Translations under genes and position numbers: made by a program
Origin: Rhodobacter sp.
GTDB taxonomy: Bacteria > Pseudomonadota > Alphaproteobacteria > Rhodobacterales > Rhodobacteraceae
Direction: 5' to 3'
DNA: 64,000 nt
Assembly: GCA_016704435.1 (NCBI GenBank)
Contig: JADJAB010000018.1
Span: 3,436-67,435 of the forward strand
The notes under the pieces: model-generated
What the model was told of the DNA's origin: nothing
What the model saw: only the letters and a program-made list of their open reading frames with translations
Database searches by the model: none
Shown here: piece after piece, positions 8,189-31,178 of the stretch
Position numbering within the stretch: the stretch's first letter is position 1
Layout: every line of letters begins with the position of its first letter

Positions 8189-9142
8189 TCAGAAGTGGTT
8201 TTGCAGTTCTTCGGCGATCTCGAACATGTCGCCGACGATGCCGTAGCGGGCGATGCTGAAGATCGAGGCTTCGGGGTCGGTGTTCACCGCCACGATGGTC
8301 TCGACATGCTTCATGCCCCACTGGTGCTGGACCGAGCCCGAGACGCCCATCGCGATATAGAGCTTGCAACTCGCCGCAAGCTGGCCCGACTGGCCGACCT
8401 GCCGCGCCTTGGGCAGCCAGCCGTTGTCGGCGATGGGCCGCGAGCAGCCGAGCGTGGCGCCCATGCCGCCGGCCAGTTCCAGGAACTGCTCGACATTGCT
8501 CTCGTCGCCAACGCCGCGCCCGATCGACAGGATGAATTCCGAGCCGGGAATGTCGATGCCGCCGGCATCGGCGGGCGGCTTCCAGCCCTCATGCGTGGTG
8601 GCGATATCAGCGGCCGGGGCTGCCATCTCGGTCACCTTGGGCGAACCCGAACCGGCGGCCGGCTCGAACACGTTGGTGCGGATGGTCAAGAGCACCGTCT
8701 CCTTGCCGGGGAAGTCGAGGTCGACCAGCACCTTCTCGGCATAGCCGGCACGGGTGGCGACCAGCGCGCCGTCCTCAAGCCGCAGCGCCTGCACATCGGT
8801 GGCCAGGCCGCAGCCCAGCTTGACCGCGGCAGCCGGCGCGAACGACCAGGCATCGACACCGTGCGCGGTGGCGATCAGCGCGGGCTTGCGCGCCTCGGCC
8901 AGCGCCAGGATCACCGCCTCGGTCAGGTCGGGCTGGAAGTCGTCGCTCGCCTTGATGGCGATCACCTCGTCCACCCCCTCGACCGAGAGCGCGCCGACAA
9001 GCGCCTGCGGATCGGCGGCGATCAGGGCAACCGCCAGCGTGTCGCCCGCCAGCTTGACGCTGCGTGCGGCGGCGATGGCCTCCAGCGACGCCGGGTGCAG
9101 TTCACCCGCGCGCTGTCCGGCAATGACAAGAAGTTCAGCCAT
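8189..9142 (-). CDS. etfA: electron transfer flavoprotein alpha subunit, TMADH-type (copy 1)
   Basis: 317 aa with GCSRPIAD, RQVGQSG and GVSGSVQH FAD motifs. It closely follows my recollection of Methylophilus methylotrophus ETF alpha (VDFPGK..VLLTIR, SIGRG). Confidence 0.95.
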   Translation of the reverse strand: MAELLVIAGQRAGELHPASLEAIAAARSVKLAGDTLAVALIAADPQALVGALSVEGVDEVIAIKASDDFQPDLTEAVILALAEARKPALIATAHGVDAWSFAPAAAVKLGCGLATDVQALRLEDGALVATRAGYAEKVLVDLDFPGKETVLLTIRTNVFEPAAGSGSPKVTEMAAPAADIATTHEGWKPPADAGGIDIPGSEFILSIGRGVGDESNVEQFLELAGGMGATLGCSRPIADNGWLPKARQVGQSGQLAASCKLYIAMGVSGSVQHQWGMKHVETIVAVNTDPEASIFSIARYGIVGDMFEIAEELQNHF

Positions 9143-9145
9143 GGA

Positions 9146-9931
9146 TCACATCCCCCGCAATTCTTTGATGATTTCGGCCAGACGGGCCGCCTGCTCGGCC
9201 GCCGATCCGGTGATCAGCTCGGCCTTGCCGCGCTCGGGCGCATACATCTTGCGCACCCGCGCAACCGGGGCGATGTCGGCCGCCGACAGCCCCAGATCGT
9301 CCAGAGACAGCTCGTCCACCGGCTTTTGCTTGGCCTGCTTGATGCCGCGCAGCGAGGCATAGCGCGGCTGGTTGATGCCCAGCTGGATCGACAAAACCGC
9401 CGGGCAGCGGATCGTCATGATCTCTTCCAGCCCGCCCTCCAACTCGCGCCGCAGCGTCGCGGTCTTGGCCCCCGGCGTGTAATCAAGGTTGCACACCACC
9501 GCGGCATGCGGCCAGCCCAGCAGGCCAGCCAACGCCATGCCGGTGACCGCCGAGCCGAAATCGGCCGATTGCGCGCCGGTAAAAACCATGTCCGGCTGTT
9601 CACGTTCCACCAGCCTGGCCAGAACCCGCGCAACCGCCACGCCATCGGCTTCGGCCAGCGCATCATCCCAGACCCGGATGCCGCGGTCGGCCCCCTTGGC
9701 CAGCGCGGTGCGCAGCGCATCATCGGCATCCTCGTCGCCGACGATGGCGATCACCACCTCGGCGGCGTCGCCTGCAGCCTCCTTGATCAGCATCGCCTCT
9801 TCGACCGAAAAGTGATCGAATTCGTTGAGATCCTTCTCGAAGAAATCCGCGTCGACATCGCGCCCGTCGGCGCGCATCTCGAACTCGTCATCAAGAAAAG
9901 CGGCCTGCTTGACCGCCACCAGTATCTTCAT
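9146..9931 (-). CDS. etfB: electron transfer flavoprotein beta subunit, TMADH-type (copy 1)
   Basis: MKILVAVKQ...ALAKGADR...RRELEGG...IQLGINQPRYASLRGIKQA, matching the methylotroph ETF beta type. Confidence 0.95.
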   Translation of the reverse strand: MKILVAVKQAAFLDDEFEMRADGRDVDADFFEKDLNEFDHFSVEEAMLIKEAAGDAAEVVIAIVGDEDADDALRTALAKGADRGIRVWDDALAEADGVAVARVLARLVEREQPDMVFTGAQSADFGSAVTGMALAGLLGWPHAAVVCNLDYTPGAKTATLRRELEGGLEEIMTIRCPAVLSIQLGINQPRYASLRGIKQAKQKPVDELSLDDLGLSAADIAPVARVRKMYAPERGKAELITGSAAEQAARLAEIIKELRGM

Positions 9932-10000
9932 CTCTGCTGCTCCATTTCCAGATCCTGTATCAATGCCGAACGCGCCAGATGCGCCGCGGCCGCATGGCGG
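9928..10000 (-). pseudogene. 3' remnant of an LRV/HEAT-repeat gene
   Basis: Reads RHAAAAHLARSALIQDLEMEQQR*, compared with the LRV protein C-terminus RFAAATRLARALLTHDQEWSS* (17469-). Its stop overlaps the etfB ATG (ATGA). Confidence 0.6.
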
Positions 10001-10001
10001 T

Positions 10002-10042: not shown

Positions 10043-10068
10043 GGGATTGGCGAGCTGACGACGCCTGC

Positions 10069-11166
10069 CTACATGCGCATGCGCTTTTTCTCTTTGTCGT
10101 AGAACGGAAGGTCTTCGACCGTGACGTCCACGGCATCCGCGGCATTGCCGAGTTTCAGCTTGGTCCCTTCGGCGATGCCCGGGCGGATGTGGACCAGCGC
10201 GAGCGACCGTCCAAGACGGTGGGAATATTCAGAGCTGGTGACCGCCCCGACTTTCTCGCCCTTCAGAAAGAGGTCCGTGCCCCCCTCGATGATGCCTTTG
10301 CTGGAGGTGCAGGAAATACCGGTCAGCCTGACCTTTTCCTTGCCTTCCTTCTTCAGCACGGCCTCCCGGCCGAGGTAGGCGGGTTTCTTGCGGGAGATCG
10401 CCCAGCCCAGCCCCATCTCCCACGGCGTGACCTTGTCGTCCATGTCGAAGGGATAGAACAGCAGCCCGGCCTCCATTCGGCCCTTGTTCAGGCAGGTGAA
10501 AGAGCAAGGAACAACGCCATCCTCTTCGCCGGCCTTGAGGATGCTGTTCCACAGACCAACCGCATCCTTGCGATCAACAAAGATCTCATAGCCGCGCTCG
10601 CCCGAATAGCCGGTACGCGACACGATCGCCTTGTGGCCAAACAGCTCGGTCTGGATCAGCCCGAAAAATTCCACAGCTGCCACGTCCGCAGGGCAGTTCG
10701 CATCAAGCAGCTTCACCGCCTTGGGGCCCTGCAGCGACAGGGTGTGCAGCTCGTCGTCCTTCTCCAGCTTGACGTTCTTGCCTTTTGCCGCAAGGGCCAG
10801 ACGCTCATCGCCAGTGCCGGTGCCGTAGACGAAGAGATACTTGTCGTCTTCGACGCGATAGATGATGACGTCGTCACAGATCGTGCCTTCGTCGGTCAGG
10901 ATCGGGCAATAGGCCGATTTGCCCTTGGTGACCTTGCTCATGTCACGGGGCGAGACCATGTCGATGACGGCCGAAGCGTCAGGCCCCTTGACCCAGATCT
11001 TCTTGAGACCGGTAAGGTCGAACAGCCCGGCCGCTTCGCGCATGGCGTCCAGTTGGTTGTCGGCTGAGTTGGTATAGCTCCACGGCACGTCCATGTCGTT
11101 CCATGGTCCAAGCCCGGCGCCCAGGCCGCGGTGAATGTCCTCGAGTGCGGATGTTCGTTTGGCCAT
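10069..11166 (-). CDS. stand-alone GcvT-like aminomethyltransferase (THF-binding)
   Basis: 365 aa with GLFDLT, EGTICDDVIIYR, SRTGYSGERGYEI, RMEAG and LPFYD C-terminal motifs. No gcvH or gcvP nearby. Confidence 0.9.
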   Translation of the reverse strand: MAKRTSALEDIHRGLGAGLGPWNDMDVPWSYTNSADNQLDAMREAAGLFDLTGLKKIWVKGPDASAVIDMVSPRDMSKVTKGKSAYCPILTDEGTICDDVIIYRVEDDKYLFVYGTGTGDERLALAAKGKNVKLEKDDELHTLSLQGPKAVKLLDANCPADVAAVEFFGLIQTELFGHKAIVSRTGYSGERGYEIFVDRKDAVGLWNSILKAGEEDGVVPCSFTCLNKGRMEAGLLFYPFDMDDKVTPWEMGLGWAISRKKPAYLGREAVLKKEGKEKVRLTGISCTSSKGIIEGGTDLFLKGEKVGAVTSSEYSHRLGRSLALVHIRPGIAEGTKLKLGNAADAVDVTVEDLPFYDKEKKRMRM

Positions 11167-11404: not shown

Positions 11405-13675
<2,271 letters not shown>

Positions 13676-14602
13676 TCAGAACAAAGGAAATTGCCATTAA
13701 GCAACGACACGACCGTTCATGCTTTCGAACATGGACAGCTTATCATCAATACTGGCTAGCTTCCCCGAAACATCCATCCTTGGGGGATTGAGGCTGAACT
13801 TATCCCAACCGTCAAAGAAACCCCGCATGGAGGATTTGAGCTTTCCGACCTCCCTTAACTTGACCCTAGGTACACCAAAATCAAGTTACAACGAAAAGAT
13901 GGCCCTGCGGCACCTTGTCTCGGGTGTCATCATATTTTTAATATTATCATTACCTTAACGTCCTTTCTGTTCTGCCAGGATTGCATCCCGAAGCGCTCGC
14001 CAGATAGAGGTGACTTGCCTTGACCGCTCCTGATTCGCATTTCCGAAATCCGTCTCTTTTCCAGATACCAAAGATCACTCCAAGACCCATTCAGCGACAT
14101 CAGGCGATCAAAAGGAATCGGAATTGGCGCATGGATGCAGGCATCCACTCCGATTCCGGCCGGTCGCCTTCCGCACCGCCGCCGCTGGCTATCGTTTGCG
14201 ATACAGGATCGCGTATTGCGCCCCTGAATCTCCGACGATCTTGTCGCGACCCTGGTGGGGCCACGTTCCTTCCCATTTCCCGTCCCCAGCAGCTGATTTG
14301 GAGACCGGGTTGTCACTAGACAGTGCGATGTGTTCTGCCCATGTCCTTTTTCCCCTTGAGGGTAACAAATGGCCAGATTCCCGCACTGCCTTATGAGTCG
14401 CCCATGTTTCATAAAAGTCAACAAATTTTCACGTCGCGGGCTTGGGACGGCAGAAATATGCGAAAAGCGCCGGCTCCGGAGCAAAGATCGAGGCGGCATG
14501 GCTCTGGCCCCGGATGCTGTCCGGACAAGCAGACGGGGCGCCTGATGCAACCGACCGTCCTTCGAATACCTGGCAGCTTTCAACGAGATCATCACGCCAC
14601 TC

Positions 14603-15279
14603 TCAATCGGAAGCCACCTTCCGGGAAATACCCGCGCTTTCGCCCCGCGGGCGCCGCCGGCTGAACCTTGCGATTGAACCAAGTGCGTCCAACGCTCCAG
14701 CGGATAGGATTATCGCCGTTCCGACCAGCTTCTCGCCGCCATAAGGCTCGCCGGCCCACAACGACGCGCTGACTGAGGCTGCAATCACTTCGAACATCAA
14801 CAGAAGCGACACCCGACCCGGATCAAGGCGTTGCGCGCCCCAGACCATTGCCCAGGTGATCGGAATCAAGATGAAAAGAGCCGCAGCCGTGGCAAAGGGA
14901 ACCACCGCAAGCAGCTGGTCGGCGTCAGGTGCGGGATATACCGGATTGACCACTATGAAGATTGCCGCGATTCCTGCGCCGAAGACGAAACTCAGCCAGG
15001 TCTTCTCGACCTCGTAGCTTCCCTTGACCTTGTGGGCGAAGGTCGCACCGACCGCAAAGGTGATGCCGGAGCCAAGCCCCATCCACTCGCCCAGCCCGGC
15101 GGCGCGAGGCAGATTGCTGCAATGCAGAGCACCACGACGCTTGCCCAGTCGCCGCGAAATCCGAACGCATCGATCGTCCGCAGCGGAATCCACCAGCAGC
15201 CCCAGGCGGCTGCCGACGCGACCACGACCGCTGACGCATGCAGGTTCGACGATGGGCTGGTCATCAGTTGCGCAGTCAT
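14603..15279 (-). pseudogene. DMT/EamA-family transporter, frameshifted and apparently internally shortened
   Basis: The N-part (VVVASAAAWGCWWIPLR) and C-part (WGAQRLDPGRVSLLLMFEVIAASVSA..LWAGE) are in different frames. Together they give ~225 aa against ~300 expected. Confidence 0.7.
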
Positions 15280-15282
15280 GGT

Positions 15283-15657
15283 TCACCGTCGCTGGTGTTC
15301 GTGGTGCAGAATGGACCGCGTGCCGGCCGAACGACGCCCGGCGCGGAATGGCCCCCCGGCCACGGGCAAGGGCGTTTTCCAATCGAAGATCGGCATTTTA
15401 TGGGCTGTGACATCCACCAACTGCGTGTCGCCCTTCAGCACCGTCGTGATCTTCTTGACCACTGCCAGCGCGTCGGGTCCCTTGATCCAGACGGTCTTGA
15501 ACCCGAGAGGGCGGGGAGGCCGGCGGCCCGGCGGCCGGGGCCGGGCCCCCCCGCCGCGGGGCGGGGAGCCCGGGGCCCGGGCCGGGCGGCGCCCCGGTCC
15601 GGGGGGGGCGCCGAATGCGCGGTGTTCGGTCTCAAGTTCGGATACACCTTTGCCCAT
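15283..15657 (-). pseudogene. second GcvT-like gene with a corrupted GC-only tract and a large internal deletion
   Basis: MGKGVSELETEHRAFGA and GFKTVWIKGPDA align to the N-terminus of the 10069-11166 protein. VDVTAHKMPIFD aligns to its C-terminus (VDVTVEDLPFYD). The middle ~250 aa are missing. Confidence 0.72.
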
Positions 15658-15684
15658 CTCACCGTCCCTTCTGTCGGGATTGAT

Positions 15685-15716
15685 GGGAGGCCTGCATTTT
15701 GACCATGCGGCCTCCC
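15685..15716 (-). terminator. hairpin downstream of etfA copy 2
   Basis: Identical to 8147-8178. Confidence 0.55.
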
Positions 15717-15726
15717 TCGGTTGGTT

Positions 15727-16680
15727 TCAGAAGTGGTTTTGGAGTTCTTCGGCGATTTCGAACATGTCGCCGACGATGCCGTAGCGGGCGATGCTGAAGA
15801 TCGAGGCCTCGGGGTCGGTGTTCACCGCCACGATGTTCTCGACATGCTTCATGCCCCATTGATGCTGGACCGAGCGCGAGACGCCCATCGCGATGTAAAG
15901 CTTGCAATTGGCCGCAAGCTGACCCGACTGGCCGACCTGGCGCGCCTTGGGCAGCCAGCCGTTGTCGGCGATGGGGCGCGAGCAGCCAAGCGTGGCGCCC
16001 ATGCCGCCGGCCAGTTCCAGGAACTGCTCGACATTGCTCTCATCGCCAACGCCGCGCCCGATCGACAGGATGAATTCCGAGCCGGGAATGTCGATGCCGC
16101 CGGCATCGGCGGGCGGCTTCCAGCCCTCATGCGTGGTGGCGATATCGGCGGCAGGGGCTGCCATCGCGGTCACCTTGGGCGCGCCCGAGCCGGCGGCCGG
16201 CTCGAACACGTTGGTGCGGATGGTCAGGAGCACGGTGGCCTTGCCGGGAAAGTCGAGGTCGACCAGCACCTTCTCGGCATAGCCGGCACGGGTGGCGACC
16301 AGCGCGCCGTCCTCAAGCCGCAGCGCCTGCACGTCGGTGGCCAGGCCACAGCCCAGTTTCACCGCGGCGGCCGGCGCGAACGACCAGGCATCGACGCCGT
16401 GCGCGGTGGCGATCAGCGCGGGCTTGCGCGCCGCGACCAGGGCGGTGATCACCGCCTCGGTCAGGTCGGGCTGGAAGTCGTCGCTCGCCTTGATGGCGAT
16501 CACCTCGTCCACCCCCTCGACCGAGAGCGCGCCGACAAGCGCCTGCGGATCGGCGGCGATCAGGACAACCGCCAGCGTGTCGCCCGCCTGCTTGACGCCG
16601 CGTGCGGCGGCGATGGCCTCCAGCGACGACGGGCGCAGCTCGCCCTCGCGCTGCCCGGCAATGACAAGAAGTTCGGCCAT
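15727..16680 (-). CDS. etfA: ETF alpha subunit (copy 2); G-to-R change in the FAD motif
   Basis: Near-identical paralog of 8189-9142. GVSRSVQH instead of GVSGSVQH, from a single base at 15876. Confidence 0.92.
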   Translation of the reverse strand: MAELLVIAGQREGELRPSSLEAIAAARGVKQAGDTLAVVLIAADPQALVGALSVEGVDEVIAIKASDDFQPDLTEAVITALVAARKPALIATAHGVDAWSFAPAAAVKLGCGLATDVQALRLEDGALVATRAGYAEKVLVDLDFPGKATVLLTIRTNVFEPAAGSGAPKVTAMAAPAADIATTHEGWKPPADAGGIDIPGSEFILSIGRGVGDESNVEQFLELAGGMGATLGCSRPIADNGWLPKARQVGQSGQLAANCKLYIAMGVSRSVQHQWGMKHVENIVAVNTDPEASIFSIARYGIVGDMFEIAEELQNHF

Positions 16681-16682
16681 GG

Positions 16683-17467: not shown

Positions 17468-17468
17468 C

Positions 17469-21031: not shown

Positions 21032-21130
21032 CCGGAGCGTTCCTTTGCGTTTATATCGGCGCCGTACTGGCACCGGATGTCAGGGAAATGGCGGCCAGGC
21101 ACTCTCTCGCATGGCCGCCAGAGTGTCAGA

Positions 21131-23344
<2,214 letters not shown>

Positions 23345-23372: not shown

Positions 23373-23945
23373 TCAGCTATTCGTTGCGGTCGGATCCTGC
23401 GTGGCGAGCAGAAGCGCCGCGCCAAGAAACTTGCGCATGTCGTCGAAGACGGCCGGCTTCTCGCCGCGCCAGCGGTCGTGCAGCCGGAAGGGCGCGGAGG
23501 CGCCGTTGGCCGCAGCATCAAGGCAGGCGGCCGCTTCGCGCGCAAAATTCAACGTCCGGCGGCGCATGTTGGCCTGATAGGTGTCCCAATGCTTGGCCTC
23601 CATCCGCAGATGGAACAGCGAACTGCGGGCACGCCGGGCAATGGTCATGCCCTCGACCCAGTCCGGCACTGCGCCCCACAAACGAAGGGCATGGGCATAG
23701 CGCCGCCGCGCCAGGGCCTCGTTCCCGGTCAGCCGTGCCGCCATCCCGGCATTGGCAAGGCTGGTCGCATAGCGCGGATCGCTGCGCGAAAGCCGCAACA
23801 TCGCCAACCACCAGGCGCGCCGCCACAGGCGCGCGGCGCGGTGGCTGTCGCCGTTGCGCAGCGCGGCATGCGCCTGCTCCTGCAGCCGTTCCCAGCCCAG
23901 GTCACAGCCACGCCACCCCGCAGCACGCGCTGCGGCAAGCCCCAT
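23373..23945 (-). CDS. conserved hypothetical TPR-like protein (start uncertain: 23945, 23981 or 23993)
   Basis: Helical segments RAARLWRRAW, DPRYATSLANAG and ARRRYAHALRLW. It sits between the ABC ATPase and tmd on the same strand. Confidence 0.65.
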   Translation of the reverse strand: MGLAAARAAGWRGCDLGWERLQEQAHAALRNGDSHRAARLWRRAWWLAMLRLSRSDPRYATSLANAGMAARLTGNEALARRRYAHALRLWGAVPDWVEGMTIARRARSSLFHLRMEAKHWDTYQANMRRRTLNFAREAAACLDAAANGASAPFRLHDRWRGEKPAVFDDMRKFLGAALLLATQDPTATNS

Positions 23946-23952
23946 ATCGGGC

Positions 23953-24658
23953 TCAGGCGCCAAGATAAGCACGTCGGACATGGTCGTTCTCATGAAGATC
24001 CCTCGCTTTCCCCTCAAGCACGAGGTCACCGGTTTCGAGCACATAGGCGTGGTCCGCCAGTTCCAGCGCCAGCTCGGCGTTCTGTTCCACCAGGATCACC
24101 GCAACGCCCTGCTTGCTGATTTCCTCGATGATCACCGCGATCTCTTCGACGATGACCGGGGCGAGGCCCATCGACGGCTCGTCAAGCAGCAGCAGTCTGG
24201 GCTTGGCCATCAGCGCGCGGCCGATCGCCAGCATCTGCTGCTCGCCGCCGGACATGGTCTTGGCAAACTGGGTGCGCCGTTCGCGCAGGCGGGGGAAGCG
24301 CTGAAACACTGCCTCCAGATCGGCGGCAACCTGCACCTTGTCGCGCCGCAGGAAGGCACCGGTGCGCAGATTTTCCTCAACGGTAAGGTCGGGGAATACC
24401 CGCCGCCCTTCGGGCATGGGCGATGCCGCGGGCGACAATTTTCTCGGGCGGCAGCCGGTCGATCCGCTGACCATCAAACCAGATCTCGCCGCCTGACAGT
24501 TTCGCAAGACCCGAGATCGCGCGCAGCGTCGTGGTCTTGCCGGCGCCATTGCCGCCGATGATCGTGACGATCCCGCTTGCCGGGGCCTGCAGCGTGATAT
24601 TCCGGATCGCCGAAACCTTCTGGTAGTTTACCGATGCGTCCTTGACCTCAAGCAACAT
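23953..24658 (-). CDS. HAAT-family ABC ATPase (LivF-like), frameshift near 24415
   Basis: GGNGAGKTT, MSGGEQQMLAIGRALM and LLLLDEPS motifs, split over two frames. Confidence 0.9.
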
Positions 24659-25442
24659 GGCGCGCACCTCCAAGATAGGCCTCGATCACCTTGGGATCGT
24701 TGCGGATATCCTTTGGCGCGCCTTCGACCAGAAGCTGGCCGAAGTTCATCACCGTGATCCGGTCGCACAGGCCCATGATCGCCTGCATGTCATGTTCGAC
24801 CAGAAGGATGGTGACACCACGGTCACGGACCTTGAACATCAGGTCCATCATCTGCCTGGTCTCTTCGGGGTTCATGCCGGTGAAGGGTTCGTCCAGCAGC
24901 AGCATGTCGGGTTCGGCCGCCAGTGCCACGGCCATGCCAAGCGCCCGTTGGTGCCCATGCGAAAGCTCGGCCGCCAGTTCGTGCGCGCGCAGTTGCAGGC
25001 CAAAGAAGGCCAGCGTTTCGCGTGCCTTCGCCTCGTTCTCACGGGCGGCCTTCGCCCCGGTGCCCAGGATCGCGCCCAGCAGCGTGGGGCGTTGGTGCAT
25101 GTAGCGACCGACCATGACGTTTTGCAGCAGTGAGAACTCCTGAAACAGGGTCGAGTGCTGGAAGGTCCGCACCAGCCCCCGCGCCGCCACCTGGGGCATG
25201 GTCAGCCCCGAGATGTCCTGCCCCTTGTAGAGCACCCGCCCCTCGGTCGGCGTGTAGTAGCCGCTGACAACGTTGAACGTTGTGGTCTTGCCGGCACCAT
25301 TGGGGCCGATCAGCCCGTGGATGGTGCCGGGCTGGACCGAGAAGCTGAGGTTGTTGATCGCCGTCAGCCCGCCGAAGCGCATCGTCAGGCCGTTGACCTC
25401 CAGCAGCGGTCGCGCGCCGGCATTTGTCCGGTCATCCTTCAT
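24648..25442 (-). CDS. HAAT-family ABC ATPase (LivG-like)
   Basis: FGGLTAI, GPNGAGKTT, LLLDEP and VEHDM motifs. Confidence 0.93.
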   Translation of the reverse strand: MKDDRTNAGARPLLEVNGLTMRFGGLTAINNLSFSVQPGTIHGLIGPNGAGKTTTFNVVSGYYTPTEGRVLYKGQDISGLTMPQVAARGLVRTFQHSTLFQEFSLLQNVMVGRYMHQRPTLLGAILGTGAKAARENEAKARETLAFFGLQLRAHELAAELSHGHQRALGMAVALAAEPDMLLLDEPFTGMNPEETRQMMDLMFKVRDRGVTILLVEHDMQAIMGLCDRITVMNFGQLLVEGAPKDIRNDPKVIEAYLGGARHVA

Positions 25443-26434
25443 TTGTTGCCCCCTTGGTCTTGGACACCACAGGAACGGCGGGCTTGCGCCCGAAGATCGC
25501 GCCGGATCTCGGCACCAGGCTTTCAAGGCCCTTTGGCAGGAACAGGACCGATGCAATCAGGATCAGGCCGTAGATCAGCGGCCGGACCTGATCCATCCCC
25601 AGTTCGCGCAAGACAACGTCGTTGAGGATCGTCAACACGATCACGCCCAGGATCGGGCCGTAGAACGTGACCGTACCCCCGACGATCGCCCAGGTCAGAA
25701 CAAAGACCATCTCTTCGACATTGAAGCGGTTGGGATTGACGGTTCCGATGTAATGCGCCAGCAGCCCGCCCGACAAACCGGCAAAGCAAGAGGCGATGAC
25801 AAAGGCCAGCGTGCGGTAATGGCGCGCCTTGACCCCCCACCGACTCAGCCAGCTTGTCCTGCCAATGGACGGCGTGGAAGATCAGCCCCACCGGCGAGCG
25901 TTCAACCCGCCATATGATCCAAAGCGAGACCGCGACCACAATCAGCGCCAGGAAGTAATAGTTGACCGGTTCGAAGAAATCGATCTTCAGCCCGCCGATC
26001 TCGATGGTGTCAAAGCCCGGTATCAGCTTGATCCCCTTCGGGCCACCGAACGGGTCGCGGAACTTGATCCAGATCAGGCGCATGATTTCGCCTGCTGCAA
26101 AGGAGCCGATCAGGAAATAGAACCCCTTCATCCGAAACAGCGGAAAGCTGAGAATAAGGGCGAAAACCCCGGCCACTGCGGCCCCTGACAGCATTGCCAG
26201 CGGCACGGGGAAGCCCGCACTCTTGGTCAGAAGCGCGCTGGCGTAGGCGCCGACGCCCATGATGACGACATGCGCCAGCGACCACTCGCCGGTCAGCGTC
26301 AGCAGCCGGTAGCTGGACACCACCAGGACGTTGATGGTCAGAAAGACCAGCACCTCTTGCTGCGAATAGCTCAGAACAAAGGGCAGCACGACCAGCGCGG
26401 CTGCAAGCAGGATCCATGCGATTATCTTCAGCAT
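25432..26434 (-). CDS. HAAT-family ABC permease (LivM-like), frameshift near 25835
   Basis: Hydrophobic protein with GEWSLAH, GGPKGI and AIVGGTVTFYGPILG. The indel lies in a C6 run. Confidence 0.88.
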
Positions 26435-26448
26435 CCGCCTGCCCCCCC

Positions 26449-27318
26449 CTACGCCCGCTCACGGGTGCCGAAAAGCCCGGTGGGCTTCACGATCAGCACC
26501 AGCAGCATCAGCGTCAGCCCGACGATGTCAGCCATCACGCCGTCGACGAACGTCGTGACGAACGTGTGGACAAAGGCGTAGACGACCGCCGCCACCACGG
26601 CCCCCTCAAGGCTGCCGACACCACCGACGATGATGATGATGAAGGCGGTGACGATGACCGAATGGCCCATGTAGGGATAGGTTCGCACCAGTGGCGCGGT
26701 CAGCGCGCCGGCCACACCCGCCAGCGCCGCGCCGATGAACATCGCGATCCGCGCCGTCTGGTTGATCGAGATGCCCTGCAGCGCCGCCGCTTCAGGATCC
26801 TGGGCGCTGGCCCGCAAGGCCCAGCCGAACCGGGTCTTCTTCAGGAACAGCCAGAGGGCGAAAAGCAGCCCGATCGTCGCCACGATCACATAGAGCCGCT
26901 GGAGCGGCAGGCTGACGCGGTCGGAGAACTGGATGATCTCCTGCGTCGAGGGCGGGATGTTCTCCATCCGCACACCGAAGATCAGCGCCGCCGATGCCTG
27001 AAGCACCAGAAGAAAACCGATCGACGCGACGAGACCGCCAAGCGGGTTGTCTCGGAGCGGCCGGAAGAGCGCCCACTCCATCAGGATGCCGACGAGGCCG
27101 ACGAACACCAGACCGGCGGCAACGGCGACCAGGAAGGGCATGTTCCAGTCACCGTAAACGGCTACCACCGCATAGGCGCCCAGCATGTAAAGCTCGCCAT
27201 GGGCGAAGTTGATCACCCCCATGACGCCGAAGATCAGGACCAGACCGACCGCGACCAGCGCCATGTAGCTGGCCGCATAGGTAGCGTTCAGAATCGTCTG
27301 GGCAAAAAGATCCACCAT
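26449..27318 (-). CDS. HAAT-family ABC permease (LivH-like)
   Basis: GLVLIFGVMGVINFAHGE, ALRASAQDPEAA and IIVGGVGS motifs. Confidence 0.93.
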   Translation of the reverse strand: MVDLFAQTILNATYAASYMALVAVGLVLIFGVMGVINFAHGELYMLGAYAVVAVYGDWNMPFLVAVAAGLVFVGLVGILMEWALFRPLRDNPLGGLVASIGFLLVLQASAALIFGVRMENIPPSTQEIIQFSDRVSLPLQRLYVIVATIGLLFALWLFLKKTRFGWALRASAQDPEAAALQGISINQTARIAMFIGAALAGVAGALTAPLVRTYPYMGHSVIVTAFIIIIVGGVGSLEGAVVAAVVYAFVHTFVTTFVDGVMADIVGLTLMLLVLIVKPTGLFGTRERA

Positions 27319-27405
27319 CAGGCGCCCCCCCCCCGTTTGGCGGAAAAGCGGCCGCTCCGGTGGCGGCACCGGACCGAAGCGGCTGTTGACCTGCGAGCCT
27401 GGGGA

Positions 27406-28710
27406 TCAGGCACGCTGGTAGTACATCGGGCCGAGGGCATCCATGTGCTTGATCAGAAGGTCGCCATGCTTGTCGTACCACTCGGGGATGCTCTTGAAAT
27501 CCTTGATGACCGCCTTGCCGTCTTCGATCACCACCACCGGCCAGTTGCCGACCAGAGCGTTGTCGATCCCGAACAACTCCTTGCCCCACCAGTCGGCTTC
27601 ACCGAAGGCATGCAGACCCTTGCCGCCCTCCTTCATCGCCGCCAGGACGTCGCCGGGTTCCACCGACCCCGCCTTCTCGGCCGCCGCCTTCCACAGATCC
27701 ATGACCGAGGCGTATTCCCACGACACGGCACCCCATTGGTTGGGATGGCGCTTGCTGTACTCGGCGTAGAACTCGTTCGGCTTCTGGAAGTTGATGAAAT
27801 CGGCATTGAGCCCCGGATCGTCGAAATCGGGGAACTGGAAGAGGAACCCTTCCATGAACTCCTTCGACGTCTTGGCGACGATCTGGTCGTAGAAATCGGC
27901 CGTGCAGGAGATGATCTGCCCCTTGTAACCCTGCTGGAACAGCTGTTCACAGATCGGATGGACGTAGTCTGAATAGCAGGTGTCAAGGCAGATGATCTGC
28001 GGATTGCTTGACATCAGCCGGGTAACGATCGGCGCGAAGTCGGTCGTTGCCGGATCGAAGAACAGGGTGTCGTCAAGCATCTCGATGCCGGCCGCCTCGA
28101 ACGCGGCGAGATAGGTCGCGACCGACGGCAGGCCAAGCGCATCCTCCTGCGCGCACATCACCGCGGTTTTCAGCTCGGGCTTGTTCTCGGCCAGCCACTG
28201 GATGCCGGTGACGTTGTAGATCGGGTGCACCTCGCACGGGGCCAGCAGCGTTGCCGTTTCGGGCGACAGGTCCGACGGCAGCAGCGTCGTGCACAGCATC
28301 CCCTCGCGCTCAGCCAGTTGCTGGACACCGGGCCACGGATCCCCGCCCAGCATCATGATCATCTTGACGCCGTCTTCTTTGATCAGCTTGGTCGCGCCGG
28401 CGCGCCTTGCCCGCATCGTATTCGTCGTCATAGGGGAACGGAATTCGACCATATGGGCCTCGCCGGCGATATTGACGCCGCCGGCCGCATTGACCCACTC
28501 GGCCCAGATGAGGCAGCCGTCGAGACCGGGCTTGCCCCAGGCGGCGACTTCGCCGGTCAGCGGCGCGAGAAAGCCGATCTTCACGGTCTTGTCGGCGGCG
28601 CGGGCAGCGCGCGGTACCAGCGATGTCGCCGCCGCCGTTCCCGCAAGCGCGGCCGCTCCGCGCAACACCCTGCGTCGGGTCAGACCATTCTTGAACATGT
28701 TCGCAAGCAT
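27406..28710 (-). CDS. HAAT-family substrate-binding protein with Tat signal
   Basis: GGAGG RBS, TRRRVL twin-arginine leader and KIGFLAPLTG. Two compensating indels near 28400-28445 scramble YDDEYD. Confidence 0.9.
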   Translation of the reverse strand: MLANMFKNGLTRRRVLRGAAALAGTAAATSLVPRAARAADKTVKIGFLAPLTGEVAAWGKPGLDGCLIWAEWVNAAGGVNIAGEAHMVEFRSPMTTNTMRARRAGATKLIKEDGVKMIMMLGGDPWPGVQQLAEREGMLCTTLLPSDLSPETATLLAPCEVHPIYNVTGIQWLAENKPELKTAVMCAQEDALGLPSVATYLAAFEAAGIEMLDDTLFFDPATTDFAPIVTRLMSSNPQIICLDTCYSDYVHPICEQLFQQGYKGQIISCTADFYDQIVAKTSKEFMEGFLFQFPDFDDPGLNADFINFQKPNEFYAEYSKRHPNQWGAVSWEYASVMDLWKAAAEKAGSVEPGDVLAAMKEGGKGLHAFGEADWWGKELFGIDNALVGNWPVVVIEDGKAVIKDFKSIPEWYDKHGDLLIKHMDALGPMYYQRA

Positions 28711-28786: not shown

Positions 28787-28989
28787 GATCAAACTCCACA
28801 GCCTGAACCCCGCCATTGGCAGATGGCTCAATGCCCAATGTAGCGCCAGATTTCGCCAATCTCAACACAAACGACATAAAGTTGCTAAGTTTGGCTTGAT
28901 GGCGAAATATAATTGGTCTATTTTGGGTGAAATTGATACAAGCGAAAATGAATCAAGTGTTGATTTCAGAGGCTTGGGAGATCGCACCA

Positions 28990-29892
28990 ATGACCAATCA
29001 TCCCGCACCGTTCCCGCGGACGACCCGATTTCGGACCGATTGCAGGCCACTTCCCAGCCAGTTCGGCCGCGATTCCGGCCTCACGCGGACTTCGATCGCG
29101 CGCGGCCTCGGGGGCAGACCATCGCCAGATCGGCCGATTCCCCCGCCATGGGACGCGGACGGCGAAATACCCAAGCCGGTCTCGGCCAGGACGCGGCAAC
29201 TGGCCGACCGCCTGTTCGCCGAGATCGTCAGCGGTGCACACAGTTTCGGAACCCGCCTCCCGGCTGAGCGCCTGCTGTCCGAGCAGCACGGCCTGTCGCG
29301 CAACACGGTCCGTCAGGCGCTGGGGTTGCTAGAGCAATTCGGGGTCGTCCAGCGCCGCATCGGCAGCGGCTCGGTGGTCCGCTACCGGCCCGAGCCGCAG
29401 GCCGATCCGCCCCCGGCTCTCGCGCCGAGGCTGCCCAACGCGCTGGACCTCAGTGAGCTCGGCGACATCACCAGCCCTCTGGAGCTAGGCGTCGTCCGCT
29501 CGATCATCGAGCCCGAGATTGCCCGCCTTGCCGTGCTCAACATGACCTCACGCGACATCCAGAGAATCAAGGACACACAGTCCGAGATCGACCAGGTCAC
29601 GGTCGACGGCGAAAGGTTCTCGGCGCTCGATGATTCTTTCCGGATGCAGCTTGCCGAGGGCACGCACAACCCGCTCCTCGTGGCGATCTATACGATGATC
29701 AATCGCGTCAGCAATGACGCCGGCTGGTCGGTGCAGCGGCGTCGGCGGCTGACGCCCGCACGGATCAGGGAATACAAGCTGCAGAACCTGTCACTCTGCG
29801 AGGCGATTGAAAGCCGCGACATCGATTCGGCCGTTGAATTCATGCGGTTGTTGCTGGCCGAGTTCCATCAGGACCTGATGCGCGGCGCGTGA
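28990..29892 (+). CDS. GntR/FadR-family transcriptional regulator (start uncertain)
   Basis: wHTH LPAERLLSEQHGLSRNTVRQAL plus a C-terminal FCD domain (LAEGTHNPLL). Confidence 0.88.
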   Translation: MTNHPAPFPRTTRFRTDCRPLPSQFGRDSGLTRTSIARGLGGRPSPDRPIPPPWDADGEIPKPVSARTRQLADRLFAEIVSGAHSFGTRLPAERLLSEQHGLSRNTVRQALGLLEQFGVVQRRIGSGSVVRYRPEPQADPPPALAPRLPNALDLSELGDITSPLELGVVRSIIEPEIARLAVLNMTSRDIQRIKDTQSEIDQVTVDGERFSALDDSFRMQLAEGTHNPLLVAIYTMINRVSNDAGWSVQRRRRLTPARIREYKLQNLSLCEAIESRDIDSAVEFMRLLLAEFHQDLMRGA

Positions 29893-31178
29893 TCCTCGAA
29901 TGTAGACGCGCCGCTGGCCTGCCGGTCCAAACGCTGGTCCCACATCTGACCGCAGGCCCGCATGTGACTCAGCAGCAGGTCGCCGTGCTTCTCCCACCAG
30001 CCGAGGATCGAGCGGATTTCGACGATCCGGGCGCGCCCGTCCTGAATGCGCACCACCGGCCAGGAGCCGACCAGCGCGTGGTCGATACCGAACAGCTCGC
30101 GCCCCCACCACCGCGCCTCGCCGAACACATTGCGACCGACCCCGCCCAGCTTCATCGCCGACAGGACAACCGTCGGCTCGACGGTCTGGATGCGCTCAAC
30201 GGCCTTGCGCCACATCTCGAGAATGGCGCAATATTGCCACGACACCGCGCTCCACTCGCCCGGAAAGCGGCGATTGAATTCGGCGTAGAACTCGGCCGGG
30301 CGCGGGAAGTCCACGCTGGTATCGCTCAGCGCCGGATCGTCAAAGTCCGGGAACTGGAAGATGAAACCCTCCATGAACTCGCGGCTGGTGCGCTCGATCA
30401 GCGCTGGATAGTTGTCGCAGGTGCAAGACAGGATCTGCCCCTTGAAGCCTTTGCGGTAGGCGGCTTCGGTCAGGGCGTGGACGAAGGGCTCATAGGCGGT
30501 GTCCCAGCAAAGGATGTCGGGCTCGGCGCTCAGCAGCGCATCGACCATGGCATCAGGATCCTCCGGCGCGCCGGTATAGAGTAGCTCCTTCACGACGGTC
30601 ATCCCCGCCGCCGCAAATGCAGCCCGATAGGTGGCAAGCGAGGGCAGCCCCAGCGCGTCGCGTTGCGCGCACAGCGCCACGCGACGCAGTTCGGGCCGGT
30701 TCTCGGACAACCAGTCGACGCCCGTCACGACATAGATCGGATGCACCTCGCAGGGTGCGATAAGGTAGGGGGTGTCCGGCGACAGGTCACTTGGCAGCAG
30801 AGTGGTCGCCAGGATCCGCGACCGGGTCAGGAAATCGCTGATCGCCGGAACGGGATCACCGCCCAGCATGAGAATCATCTTGACCCCCTGCTCCAGCACC
30901 AGGTGCTTGGCACCCAGCAAAGCGCAGGCTGGGTCATACTGGTCGTCATAGGCGACAATCTCGACCCGACGGCGTTGGTCGCCGATCCGCAGGCCACCCT
31001 CGGCATTAAGCCGATCGGCCCAGATCCGGCACCCCTCAAAACCCGGACGCCCCCAGGCCGAAGCGGCACCCGTCAGCGGCGCCAGCACGCCGACCTTGAC
31101 CGCCTCGCGCGCGCGCATGGCATACTTGGGAAGGCTCGCGGAAACCGCGAGATCGGCGCCAAAGGAATAGATGCTCAT
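29868..31178 (-). CDS. substrate-binding-protein paralog without a signal peptide
   Basis: GAGG RBS. Paralog of 27406-28710 (shared APCEVHPIY, CAQxDALGLPS and FMEGFxFQFPDFDDP). The N-terminus MSIYSFGADLAVSASLPKY has no Tat or Sec features. Confidence 0.85.
   Translation of the reverse strand: MSIYSFGADLAVSASLPKYAMRAREAVKVGVLAPLTGAASAWGRPGFEGCRIWADRLNAEGGLRIGDQRRRVEIVAYDDQYDPACALLGAKHLVLEQGVKMILMLGGDPVPAISDFLTRSRILATTLLPSDLSPDTPYLIAPCEVHPIYVVTGVDWLSENRPELRRVALCAQRDALGLPSLATYRAAFAAAGMTVVKELLYTGAPEDPDAMVDALLSAEPDILCWDTAYEPFVHALTEAAYRKGFKGQILSCTCDNYPALIERTSREFMEGFIFQFPDFDDPALSDTSVDFPRPAEFYAEFNRRFPGEWSAVSWQYCAILEMWRKAVERIQTVEPTVVLSAMKLGGVGRNVFGEARWWGRELFGIDHALVGSWPVVRIQDGRARIVEIRSILGWWEKHGDLLLSHMRACGQMWDQRLDRQASGASTFEDHAPRIRS

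Follow-up and report, generated by a model that had tools for sequence, protein, structure and literature searches.

A probable island of catabolic genes in Rhodobacter sp. for oxidative demethylation of trimethylamine and dimethylamine without a need for O2

Does the 23-kb gene block at positions 8189–31178 of the window (the whole 64,000-nucleotide stretch of Rhodobacter sp. DNA analysed here) encode a route for the oxidation of trimethylamine (TMA) and dimethylamine (DMA) that can run without O2, and what do the genes surrounding the dehydrogenases contribute to it? A first-pass annotation had read the block as a mobile system leading from import through two dehydrogenases and an electron-transfer flavoprotein (ETF) to quinone, with folate-linked capture of the released carbon. 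All the components it had named were recovered in place by searches of Pfam, NCBIfam and the PDB, and its block limits coincide with the stop of etfA1 and the start of SBP2. All listed genes of the block are on the minus strand, with the exception of the FCD/GntR regulator. Anoxic operation is known biochemistry for trimethylamine and dimethylamine dehydrogenases (TMADH and DMADH). In PMC12162431 the anaerobic route is already presented as an established pathway, with reference to Kim et al. 2001, a study of a denitrifying isolate. The two genes on which the reading turns are the following.

11405–13663, minus strand: dmd, DMADH-clade paralogue of TMADH (match to PDB 1DJN; Q60/T74/F105)
21131–23329, minus strand: tmd, trimethylamine dehydrogenase (full-length match to PDB 1DJN; Y60/S74/W105)

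The tmd product aligned with 1DJN at 1290 bits, residues 5–732 falling on 2–729 without a gap (728 residues), and the dmd product matched the same structure over its full length at 1132 bits. The true start of dmd is likely near 13618, which would make the product 737 aa long, like those of its relatives; P0078, a 736-aa protein of Hyphomicrobium, shares 82% identity with it. Residues C30, Y169, H172, D267, W264 and W355 are kept in both products, as are the ligands of the 4Fe-4S cluster (Cys345/348/351/364). A comparison of 15 sequences showed the tmd clade to be marked by Y60/S74/W105; in the dmd clade, which takes in the 736-aa Hyphomicrobium protein, Q60/T74 was found in eight of eight sequences and F105 in seven, with W105 in P0092. 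A rule linking positions 60, 74 and 105 of TMADH to DMA specificity is reportedly due to Basran et al. 1997.

It was considered whether the two flavoproteins act instead on other amines (histamine, N-methylated amino acids, polyamines), the island then being a different catabolic pathway. Histamine dehydrogenases match at E 1e-141 to 1e-159 (6DE6, 3K30), N-methylproline and dimethylglycine demethylases are also family members, and in public databases the relatives are annotated in generic terms, as “FAD-dependent oxidoreductase”. TMADH, however, scores over twice as high as histamine dehydrogenase, and the tmd product has, in addition to its ungapped alignment, the same aromatic bowl (Y60/W264/W355) and the same S74/W105 as TMADH. 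Together with a partner ETF of the TMADH-specific type and the presence of the same operon in Methylophilus methylotrophus (L061), this makes such a reading very improbable, and we retain TMA and DMA as the likely substrates.

Two NCBI assemblies encode a protein identical to the tmd product, as do contigs from wastewater. Contigs of wastewater metatranscriptomes, matching at ≥97% identity, cover both dmd and tmd, i.e. the two genes are transcribed in situ. The TMADH of Paracoccus aminovorans is 81% identical to the tmd product, and this species has a syntenic cluster. The denitrifying isolate of Kim et al. is reportedly a Paracoccus. According to published work, P. aminovorans BM109 degrades TMA both aerobically and, with nitrate, anaerobically, which supports the proposed ability of the system to work anoxically. 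Electrons leaving the dehydrogenases would be handled by the products of five further genes.

8189–9142, minus strand: etfA1, alpha subunit of W3A1/TMADH-type ETF (PDB 1O94_D/3CLU_D; Pfam ETF, ETF_alpha)
9146–9931, minus strand: etfB1, beta subunit of W3A1-type ETF (PDB 1O94_C)
15730–16680, minus strand: etfA2, duplicate alpha subunit (95.3% amino acid identity to etfA1)
16686–17467, minus strand: etfB2, duplicate beta subunit, frameshifted here (split into two frames by tblastn)
18872–21073, minus strand: etfD, EtfD/FadF/DgcB-family membrane haem-b/Fe-S protein, predicted ETF:quinone oxidoreductase (PDB 9OJN; Pfam CCG, Fer4)

In the PDB search, etfA1 matched 1O94_D/3CLU_D at E 2e-102 (next ETF 4e-34) and etfB1 matched 1O94_C at E 2e-92 (next ETF 6e-40), the latter retaining the recognition-loop motif PRYASLRGIKQA. 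Each subunit thus stands much nearer to the TMADH-specific W3A1 ETF than to the other solved ETFs. The second pair is a recent duplicate of the first, the DNA at 8147–9962 and 15685–17497 being 95.3% identical. The etfD product matched the structure of M. smegmatis EtfD (9OJN) at E 9e-72. His102 and His282 align with the haem ligands of EtfD (the haem ligands and clusters of the family are described in PMC13083937), and the cysteines of clusters D2, D3 and D4 are kept, five for the non-cubane D2 and eight for the two cubane clusters, whereas none of the four ligands of EtfD's linear 3Fe-4S cluster D1 is present.

Further genes of the block are those of a putative importer, a regulator, a second binding protein and a protein paired with dmd, together with a transporter remnant.

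23953–27369, minus strand: HAAT-family ABC genes, livF/G/M/H-like (ABC_tran, BCA_ABC_TP_C, BPD_transp_2)
24648–25556, minus strand: livG-like gene of the importer
26449–27369, minus strand: livH-like gene of the importer
27406–28710, minus strand: SBP1, predicted periplasmic LivJ-type binding protein of the importer (Peripla_BP_6, 5e-38)
28927–29892, plus strand: GntR-family regulator with an FCD (FadR-type) ligand domain (GntR 2e-14, FCD 3e-19)
29868–31178, minus strand: SBP2, LivJ-type binding protein, predicted cytoplasmic (Peripla_BP_6, 4e-44)
10069–11166, minus strand: stand-alone GcvT-fold, DmmD-like protein, predicted to bind tetrahydrofolate, paired with dmd (GCV_T, GCV_T_C)
14603–15382, minus strand: remnant of a DMT/EamA transporter gene (weak EamA match)

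The two binding proteins differ at their N-termini: that of SBP1 (...GLTRRRVLRGAAALAGTAAATSLVPRAARA) is a twin-arginine signal peptide, while that of SBP2 (MSIYSFGADLAVSASLPK...) is conserved in eight orthologues, all of them without a signal sequence, and in all orthologues examined SBP1 carries the Tat signal and SBP2 none. The regulator gene is divergent from the importer operon and convergent with the SBP2 gene, which it overlaps. It is always accompanied by SBP2 in alphaproteobacterial loci, and the two are kept also in loci that lack ABC transporter genes (L001, L002, L010–L012). As for folate capture, tblastn gives one GcvT-like gene in the block, and not several as the first-pass annotation had it. 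Its product matched GCV_T (2e-66) and GCV_T_C in Pfam but falls under the NCBIfam cut-offs for GcvT; in the PDB, it matched GcvT at 4e-51 and the C-terminal, tetrahydrofolate-binding domain of Tdm at 8e-44. It is 79–82% identical to the dmd-adjacent gene of L010–L012 and, from these matches, would belong with the tetrahydrofolate-binding DmmD/Tdm proteins; a formaldehyde/tetrahydrofolate role has been proposed for stand-alone DmmD (PMC5520151, PMC4543880). The decayed DMT/EamA remnant is an extra gene, absent from the earlier list. It is 62% identical to the DMT gene following gcvT in L005, L008 and L009; in the relatives L082 and L097 the gene is intact (301 aa, after a 90-aa ORF), and compared with L082 the window has a deletion and an insertion.

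Several genes are interrupted in this sequence, which raises the question of whether the island is a decaying relic, with importer, one ETF copy and DMT exporter as pseudogenes, rather than a working pathway. A 1-nt frameshift lies in etfB2 at about 17005 (a run of four C, against five in copy 1), livF-like is split at about 24414 and livM-like at about 25833, SBP1 has a 13-residue frame excursion, and to these can be added the DMT remnant and the broken IS transposases described below. Genuine lesions in livF and livM would leave this sequence without a functional importer. A 98.9%-identical genome, however, carries undamaged versions of the affected genes, as do Illumina-derived metagenome contigs of four sequencing runs. 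The livF and livM indels were seen against both the metagenome contigs and L082 (the genes are intact in L082–L086), and in GCA_964268705.1 an intact etfB2 has the same product as etfB1. The differences from the 98.9%-identical genome are mostly in G or C homopolymer runs, a signature of long-read consensus errors, so the frameshifts in etfB2, livF and livM, which are peculiar to the present assembly, are probably assembly errors or strain-specific lesions. Moreover, tmd, dmd, etfD, the LRV gene, etfBA1 and gcvT are all intact, and most genomes make do with a single ETF pair. A relic is accordingly improbable, and a working pathway remains the preferred reading.

Two further proteins consist of helical repeats.

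17469–18875, minus strand: LRV alpha-solenoid, 468 aa, about 17 repeats (PF01816, 9e-36)
23373–23993, minus strand: TPR-like protein, 206 aa, all-helical (AF2 fold; no Pfam match over threshold)

The LRV protein matched 1LRV at 1e-8, and the closest folds to its AF2 model (pLDDT 93.9) are the scaffold A subunit of PP2A and 1LRV; its sequence contains no signal peptide and no metal-binding motif, and its close homologues are all unnamed. The TPR-like protein gave nothing above threshold in Pfam, and matches of its AF2 model (pLDDT 90.9) to TPR folds were weak, with none at E ≤ 0.001; its 413 homologues are named “TPR-containing” or hypothetical. Its gene lies upstream of tmd in L001, L002, L004, L005 and L008–L012 and is restricted to alphaproteobacterial tmd clusters. 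Among 60 informative TMADH loci (those with enough sequence) from Alpha-, Beta- and Gammaproteobacteria, the order tmd-etfD-LRV-etfB-etfA is colinear in 55, M. methylotrophus DSM 46235 included, and coordinates place 4-nt overlaps at the junctions between genes; in the window, the LRV start and the etfD stop share 4 nt. The accessory genes are thus a conserved part of the classical system and not a peculiarity of the window; the first-pass annotation had named an absence of such co-occurrence as speaking against its reading, and these loci show the opposite.

Every LRV orthologue looked up sits in a cluster of the tmd-etfD-LRV-etfB-etfA type. The gene is, however, missing from otherwise complete tmd-etfD-etfBA clusters of Zoogloea and one Rhodospirillales MAG, so it is not obligatory for electron transfer. 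We consider it less likely than not that LRV and the TPR-like protein serve in maturation or assembly (for cofactor insertion into TMADH, ETF or EtfD, or for membrane targeting), outside the working electron-transfer complex. In favour of this role, both are pure helical repeats without catalytic or cofactor motifs, such as chaperones commonly contain (TPR and HEAT repeats), LRV is dispensable in three lineages, and the TPR-like gene is confined to Alphaproteobacteria. Against this, LRV lies between etfD and etfB, to which it is translationally coupled, and has maintained its position in three proteobacterial classes, which suggests stoichiometric co-production. TMADH flavinylation and ETF assembly in E. 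coli are not known to need such factors. A scaffold or adaptor docking ETF or a dehydrogenase at EtfD is the role we find most likely for LRV. The first-pass annotation had called the accessory parts functionally undescribed, which stands for LRV, the TPR-like protein and SBP2; the FadF/EtfD-type and DmmD-type partners already have functional precedents.

As to mobility, the block lies exactly between two insertion sequences.

7142–8118, plus strand: left IS5-family copy (DDE_Tnp_1_5 2e-39 and DDE_Tnp_1 6e-9, on separate ORFs)
31364–32336, minus strand: right IS5-family copy, in opposite orientation to the left one, adjoining dnaB (repeat match to the left copy)

The copies are inverted 977-bp repeats, 96% identical, and the left one has terminal inverted repeats of 17–19 bp (GGCGTTGTTGCAGAACT). 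Inverted copies at both ends, an IS-rich left flank and a truncated remnant of the left copy in a related genome (L098) would fit an active composite transposon with a recent history of transfer between genomes, as would the identity of the TMADH, which is 83% to proteins of Hyphomicrobiales, Rhodobiaceae and Kiloniellaceae against 79–82% to several Rhodobacteraceae. We nevertheless regard this as unlikely. The transposase genes of both copies are fragmented (the left copy has three additional single bases compared with the metagenome contigs), a target-site duplication was sought beside each copy and the composite and not found, and the block occupies the same chromosomal site by dnaB in every near-identical assembly found; the same IS adjoins dnaB in L082 and L083. 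A search of plasmids for the block at >80% identity found it on none. The earlier description of the block as mobile is therefore not demonstrated.

We consider it likely that the block is a catabolic island for O2-independent oxidative demethylation of TMA and DMA; for the chain from import to quinone with folate capture, support comes from homology, synteny, wastewater metatranscripts and the anaerobic degradation of TMA by P. aminovorans. TMA or DMA would be imported by the HAAT-type ABC importer, with SBP1 exported via the Tat pathway, after which TMADH would convert TMA to DMA and formaldehyde, and the DMADH-clade paralogue DMA to methylamine and formaldehyde; no methylamine oxidation pathway is encoded within the window. 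Single electrons from the [4Fe-4S] cluster of each dehydrogenase would pass to the dedicated W3A1-type ETF, itself re-oxidised at the membrane by the EtfD/DgcB-type protein via its non-cubane 4Fe-4S cluster, two cubane 4Fe-4S clusters and haem b. As this protein is predicted to reduce quinone, any respiratory acceptor (O2, nitrate) would be usable. Formaldehyde may be captured as methylene-tetrahydrofolate by the DmmD-like GcvT-fold protein, and expression would be governed by the FCD/GntR regulator, possibly aided by SBP2, a cytoplasmic paralogue of SBP1, as the amine sensor.

In most Beta- and Gammaproteobacteria, the partners of tmd are an APC permease and O2-dependent dmmDABC, whereas the window combines tmd with an ABC importer and dmd, so the “fully anoxic” set is just one variant of the system. 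The enzymes of the block are textbook ones, but its conserved helper proteins are not.

Open reading frames were called in six frames and filtered by third-position GC, after which Pfam, NCBIfam and PDB searches were run. The island carrying the trimethylamine/dimethylamine (TMA/DMA) genes (window 8189-31178) consists of an unbroken minus-strand array at 8189-28710, followed by a divergent regulator gene and one further minus-strand gene.

Genes of the island, with window coordinates and strand
8189-9142, minus strand, etfA1
9146-9931, minus strand, etfB1
10069-11166, minus strand, gcvT-like gene
11405-13663, minus strand, dmd, the DMADH-clade paralogue
14603-15382, minus strand, remnant of a DMT/EamA gene
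15730-16680, minus strand, etfA2
16686-17467, minus strand, etfB2
17469-18875, minus strand, LRV solenoid gene
18872-21073, minus strand, EtfD-like membrane haem/Fe-S protein
21131-23329, minus strand, tmd, the TMADH gene
23373-23993, minus strand, TPR-like gene
23953-27369, minus strand, livF/G/M/H-like genes
27406-28710, minus strand, SBP1, a LivJ-type binding protein
28927-29892, plus strand, FCD/GntR-family regulator
29868-31178, minus strand, SBP2, a second LivJ-type binding protein

To the right of the island, dnaB is followed by ordinary chromosomal genes (infC, sulfite and PAPS reductase, glycosyltransferases). The gene inventory of the first-pass annotation was correct overall and needed amending in two points. 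It had listed several GcvT-like genes, of which tblastn turned up one only, and of the two TMADH-type ETFs that it had described, both are present, the second being a 95.3% DNA duplicate of the first. A search of the approximately 2-kb gap at 13663-15727 and of the transcribed dmd leader for a regulatory RNA or small ORF found none that is conserved: Rfam gave 0 matches across 7000-32500, no promoter-like site was seen upstream of dmd, and neither the DNA of the gap nor its translation resembles the corresponding regions of ten relatives, the only content of the gap being the DMT remnant. A metatranscriptome contig (13376-14257, run X27, depth ~20) reaches ~600 nt upstream of the dmd start, which implies a long leader. 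On an ENA metagenome contig (L099), the genes are arranged as gcvT-etfB-etfA-(93 aa)-DMT. This arrangement suggests that the layout of the window came about by fusion of a tmd module and a dmd module, each ending in etfBA, which would account for the ETF duplication.

The tmd product (732 aa) aligns over residues 5-732 with residues 2-729 of TMADH from Methylophilus methylotrophus (PDB ID: 1DJN), gap-free and with 1290 bits, whereas histamine dehydrogenases reach under half of that score. It has the full-length three-domain architecture of TMADH (OYE-type FMN barrel, ADP-binding domain and second alpha/beta domain), with Pfam domains Oxidored_FMN, Pyr_redox_2 and OYE-like_second_a-b, and keeps Cys30, Cys345/348/351/364, the Y169/H172/D267 triad and the Y60/W264/W355 bowl. 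We take Cys30 to be the 6-S-cysteinyl-FMN site, Cys345/348/351/364 to be the [4Fe-4S] ligands, and Y60/W264/W355 to form the cation-pi bowl. Judged by these residues and the alignment, tmd is an orthologue of trimethylamine dehydrogenase (EC 1.5.8.2), for which a preference for TMA and an ETF acceptor are predicted. The closest GTDB representative by TMADH is a Rhodobacteraceae MAG (88% identity).

The dmd product scores 1132 bits against 1DJN and is 64-65% identical to the tmd product. The ORF is 752 aa long, the true start probably being an internal Met that gives 737 aa, as in relatives. In a 15-sequence alignment, both dehydrogenases keep Cys30, Tyr169, His172, Asp267, Trp264, Trp355 and the four cluster Cys. 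The same alignment separates the tmd clade, with Tyr60/Ser74/Trp105, from the dmd clade, with Gln60/Thr74/Phe105 (one exception, P0092, has Trp105), and this split of the two clades at positions 60/74/105 is a result of the present alignment. These are reportedly the positions which Basran et al. used in 1997 to turn TMADH towards DMA specificity, and the Q60/T74/F105 triad presumably comprises the residues setting DMADH apart from TMADH. The dmd product is 82% identical to a 736-aa protein of Hyphomicrobium zavarzinii with the same Q60/T74/F105; the characterised DMADH (EC 1.5.8.1) is that of Hyphomicrobium X. A third DMADH-like clade (protein P0106, loci L095/L096), 71% identical, also carries Q60/T74/F105, and its gene is solitary, with no ETF, EtfD or LRV neighbours.

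The ETF of the island matches that of M. methylotrophus W3A1 with E-values of 2e-102 (alpha) and 2e-92 (beta), the next solved ETFs following at 4e-34 and 6e-40, and the recognition-loop motif of the beta subunit (PRYASLRGIKQA) is identical to that of W3A1 ETF. By these matches, it is an ETF of the W3A1 type (TMADH-specific) and not of the housekeeping kind. The EtfD-like protein (733 aa) reaches an E-value of 9e-72 against M. smegmatis EtfD as solved by cryo-EM (PDB ID: 9OJN), and its residue roles were assigned after PMC13083937. His102 and His282 align with the EtfD haem-b ligands His78 and His241, hydrophobic segments lie within residues 32-276, the cubane [4Fe-4S] Cys are 330/333/336/340 and 394/397/400/404, and those of the non-cubane D2 cluster are 603/638/639/678/681; the Pfam CCG domain is matched twice. 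Membrane ETF:quinone oxidoreductases related to HdrDE are known as EtfD in M. smegmatis and M. tuberculosis, as FadF in B. subtilis and as DgcB in P. aeruginosa, DgcB being homologous to the EtfD family (PMC13083937), and the protein of the island shares with that family the N-terminal helices with bis-His haem b, the two cubane [4Fe-4S] clusters and the two CCG domains. The ligands of the linear [3Fe-4S] cluster D1 (EtfD Cys503/538/581/584), a trait specific to the actinobacterial EtfD subtype, are replaced by Asp, Thr, Asp and Thr. Since FadF and DgcB, which are proposed to take electrons from ETF at D2, also lack the D1 ligands (PMC13083937), the EtfD-like protein is placed in the FadF/DgcB subtype; as described for these two in the same paper, it has no long disordered tail. 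Its partners are an amine dehydrogenase and its ETF, not acyl-CoA dehydrogenases, and it is accompanied by LRV. DgcB-like proteins from Burkholderia, Ralstonia and Azospirillum replicons match residues ~264-711 only (33-38% identity), and this limitation to the C-terminal two-thirds indicates that the membrane domain differs and that the tmd-linked proteins form their own subfamily. Given its homology and the unvarying place of its gene between tmd and etfBA, we infer that the EtfD-like protein would oxidise reduced ETF and reduce quinone, which is probably ubiquinone rather than menaquinone. The dimethylglycine module DgcA-DgcB-ETF of P. aeruginosa, where we assume DgcA to be of the TMADH family and the ETF genes to lie in the same dgc locus, follows the same logic (N-demethylase, EtfD-family Fe-S protein and ETF) for another substrate, the N-terminal domain of DgcB differing from that of the island protein. 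To our knowledge, the dgc locus has no LRV gene.

The survey of one genome per GTDB species yielded TMADH orthologues of at least 71% identity at 80 loci, 60 of which were informative, i.e. had at least 8 kb downstream of tmd, and colinearity was scored within 9 kb. In 55 of these 60 loci, among them M. methylotrophus DSM 46235, Methylotenera, Methylophaga, Paraburkholderia, Xanthobacter and Aromatoleum, the order tmd-etfD-LRV-etfB-etfA is colinear, so that the expected co-occurrence of accessory genes with tmd in other genomes is borne out for the core. The same core is found on a Hyphomicrobium metagenome contig retrieved separately, and Tabrizicola soli has dmd-gcvT between LRV and etfB. 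Further LRV orthologues, obtained by a separate retrieval from marine and other metagenomes, also belong to this operon, while longer and more distant LRV proteins lie outside it. Three clusters, L036, L039 (Zoogloea) and L074 (Rhodospirillales MAG), have no LRV gene, with an etfD-etfB gap of ~110 bp, and LRV is therefore dispensable. These three are otherwise complete tmd-etfD-etfBA clusters, in effect natural "LRV deletions" that lend themselves to comparison. The classical TMADH system has a DgcB-type EtfD everywhere and an LRV solenoid nearly everywhere. The variable shell of the loci, defined by clustering all locus ORFs, consists in the Beta- and Gammaproteobacteria mostly of an APC permease (59 loci) together with dmmDABC, whose dmmD is the GcvT-like gene of these loci, and in the Alphaproteobacteria of the HAAT importer, the TPR-like gene and the FCD/SBP2 pair.

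The LRV product has the tandem 24-residue repeats in a right-handed alpha/3-10 superhelix that characterize the LRV family, matching PF01816 at 9e-36 and 1LRV at 1e-8 by sequence and 1e-5 by fold. Its AF2 model is one uninterrupted solenoid of 34 short helices (pLDDT 94), which in fold comes nearest to the PP2A scaffold subunit and 1LRV. The latter, from A. vinelandii, presumably has an N-terminal [4Fe-4S] domain, which is lacking in the island protein; no Cys cluster, conserved Cys or metal motif was found in 64 orthologues, across which conservation is confined to the repeat skeleton. In the related, 98.9%-identical genome, the start of the LRV gene overlaps etfD and its stop overlaps etfB, by 4 nt each. 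LRV is read as an adaptor or scaffold. The TPR-like protein is modelled as helical hairpins (pLDDT 91), and since the fold search gave weak TPR matches only, none at E <= 0.001, no function can be assigned to it; none of its 413 homologues is characterised.

The importer has the composition of the HAAT (LivJHMGF) family, with an exported Peripla_BP_6 protein, two BPD_transp_2 permeases and two ATPases (one with BCA_ABC_TP_C); two of its genes are frameshifted in the window and intact in relatives. SBP1 carries a twin-arginine signal. SBP2, which shares 64% nucleotide identity with SBP1 (their orthologues cross-match at ~50-54% at the protein level), begins MSIYSFGADLAVSASLPK without a signal, as do all orthologues examined, and remains paired with the FCD regulator even at loci without the ABC transporter. 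We assume AmiC, of the P. aeruginosa amidase regulon, to be a cytoplasmic LivJ-fold sensor, and SBP2 can be likened to it, by analogy only, in its LivJ fold, its missing signal peptide and its pairing with a regulator, which is a GntR/FCD DNA-binding protein for SBP2 and an antiterminator for AmiC. A comparison with AmiC and other solved cytoplasmic sensors gave no AmiC match at E <= 1e-5 and only distant LivJ/LIVBP ones. The pairing without a transporter, together with the AmiC analogy, suggests that SBP2 may be a cytoplasmic sensor. It is a speculative and rather doubtful extension that LRV would serve as a PP2A A-like scaffold holding the ETF, and perhaps TMADH/DMADH, on EtfD as an amine:quinone supercomplex, with SBP2 as a cytoplasmic methylamine sensor that would control the FCD/GntR repressor through contact between the two proteins.

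The product of the gcvT-like gene is similar to GcvT and also to the H4F domain of the TMAO demethylase Tdm. GcvT proper was rejected for it, since its scores lie below the equivalog cut-offs (243 bits for PRK00389, cut-off 300, and 199 for TIGR00528, cut-off 235.85) and its gene neighbours dmd and etfBA, not gcvHP. It is a stand-alone GCV_T and GCV_T_C protein whose gene adjoins that of a DMA-demethylating enzyme. DmmD, of the dimethylamine monooxygenase DmmDABC, is likewise stand-alone and encoded next to such an enzyme, and at other tmd loci the homologues of the gcvT-like gene are found immediately upstream of dmmABC. DmmD and the C-terminal domain of Tdm likewise have the GcvT fold binding H4F, with a proposed formaldehyde-H4F conjugation, and published genetics gave the stand-alone DmmD a formaldehyde/H4F role (PMC5520151). 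The protein of the island differs in partnering the O2-independent DMADH instead of DmmABC, and is 37-41% identical to dmmD of the Beta-/Gammaproteobacterial tmd loci. Exact-protein look-ups gave no record for the gcvT-like or etfA1 products.

Compared with the TMADH-ETF system of M. methylotrophus W3A1 (PDB IDs: 1DJN, 2TMD, 1O94-1O97), the dehydrogenase of the island is orthologous and ~70% identical over its full length, with the 6-S-cysteinyl-FMN Cys, [4Fe-4S] ligands, ADP-binding domain and substrate bowl in common; the ETF, too, is an orthologue and shares its recognition loop, and the M. methylotrophus genome has the same tmd-etfD-LRV-etfBA order. In contrast, the host of the island is alphaproteobacterial and GC-rich, and the island adds dmd, the GcvT-like gene, the ABC importer, the TPR-like gene, FCD/SBP2 and the second ETF copy, whereas the Methylophilaceae loci have an APC permease and often dmmDABC. 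In Hyphomicrobium, dmd adjoins an APC permease and, unlike in the island, has no adjacent gcvT-like gene. Plasmid IV of Paracoccus aminovorans JCM 7685 (JCM7685_RS17130-17175) is syntenic (SBP2-FCD-TPR-tmd-etfD-LRV-etfBA-gcvT-DMT), with 78% nucleotide and 81% TMADH identity, but lacks both dmd and the ABC importer, carries only one ETF pair and has a gcvT of the other paralogue group (58% identity). All of its accessory genes are annotated as "hypothetical" or generically.

The island lies between inverted 977-bp repeats (7142-8118 and 31364-32336, 96% identical) which encode IS5-family transposase fragments and end in 17-19 bp inverted repeats. Two IS copies are thus present, as in a composite transposon; a functional transposase is not, the ORFs being fragmented in both copies, and no target-site duplication was found around either IS copy or the composite, the outer flanks (...CAAAA vs CAAC...) being different. 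The first-pass annotation had called the system mobile; with both transposases broken and no target duplication visible, mobility is a plausible part of its history rather than a demonstrated activity. In the related genome, the left IS5 copy is reduced to a 57-bp remnant beside IS21, indicating that the two-IS bracket is ancestral in the lineage. A plasmid origin was rejected, as no plasmid matched above 80% identity and near-identical copies lie beside dnaB on 0.7- and 2.1-Mb contigs. The transposase frame switch from the DDE_Tnp_1_5 ORF to the DDE_Tnp_1 ORF coincides exactly with an imperfect palindrome of 16 bp (CCCTCTCGTGGTTTGC / GCAAACCGTGAGAGGG) at 7635-7675, which has its mirror image in 31364-32336. 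The palindrome could be a hairpin that stimulates frameshifting, or else an insertion of a REP-like element.

The left flank (1-6824) is IS-dense and of lower GC (0.58).

Features of the left flank, with window coordinates
296-2315, IS21 istA/istB (istB truncated)
2587-3426, IS1-like fragment
3547-4644, P63C-domain ORF
5133-6824, IS4/5-type DDE transposase

On the other side, an OmpA-family ORF (47952-50060) contains internal DNA repeats (48200-48760, 75-78% identical) at offsets that are multiples of ~114-170 bp. Three adjacent Glyco_tranf_2_4 glycosyltransferase genes (37728-42211) share DNA segments 75-85% identical, which makes them paralogues by local duplication; two of these ORFs overlap by ~145 bp, which may be another frameshift.

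An identical TMADH is found in GCA_964268705.1 (2.1-Mb contig), GCA_016711185.1 and wastewater contigs, loci which are 98.9% identical to the window at the DNA level and have the same layout, including both ETF pairs. All of these loci have undamaged livF, livM and DMT genes; an intact etfB2 is present in GCA_964268705.1, and none was called in GCA_016711185.1. Most indels of the window lie in G or C homopolymers and intact alleles occur in Illumina-derived contigs of four metagenomes, so the frameshifts are regarded as assembly errors or strain-specific lesions and not as a trait of the element. Compared with the 98.9%-identical genome, SBP1 has three indels (28400-28440) that compensate one another and leave a local frame excursion of ~13 residues. 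The island is held by many wastewater and sludge metagenomes, and four wastewater metatranscriptomes have contigs at 97% identity or above, with cover strongest on dmd, then on tmd, and thin elsewhere; the depth of contigs reflects expression poorly, and metatranscriptomes may contain carried-over DNA. The denitrifying isolate of Kim et al. 2001 is said to be a Paracoccus. The TMADH/DMADH route is treated as the known anaerobic pathway in PMC12162431, with Kim et al. 2001 cited there for a denitrifying isolate, and a 2026 preprint describes that P. aminovorans BM109 removes TMA with O2 and, on nitrate, anaerobically.

The explanation given by the first-pass annotation, a chain from import through dehydrogenase and ETF to quinone with folate-linked C1 capture, able to work anoxically, is the best one and now has residue-level and synteny evidence behind it. 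For electron transfer between proteins, TMADH and its ETF serve as textbook models. Full-text searches of the literature found no paper linking TMADH with an EtfD-type protein or LRV, nor a description of the electron acceptor of the TMADH ETF or of the genes accompanying tmd. The contribution of the window itself is modest, as it adds another alphaproteobacterial member to the classical TMADH/DMADH-ETF system. Of wider use is the comparative result, i.e. the conserved placement of EtfD and LRV between tmd and etfBA, including in the species of the model organism, which offers a concrete and testable path from methylated amines to the quinone pool. The set tmd, etfD, LRV, etfBA (with or without dmd) can serve as a marker for O2-independent TMA/DMA oxidation in wastewater, sediments and gut, settings in which removing TMA is of interest for applications, and the importer together with the SBP2/FCD pair may provide TMA uptake and sensing. 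If true, the LRV-EtfD supercomplex would be the physiological re-oxidation route of the classical TMADH ETF.
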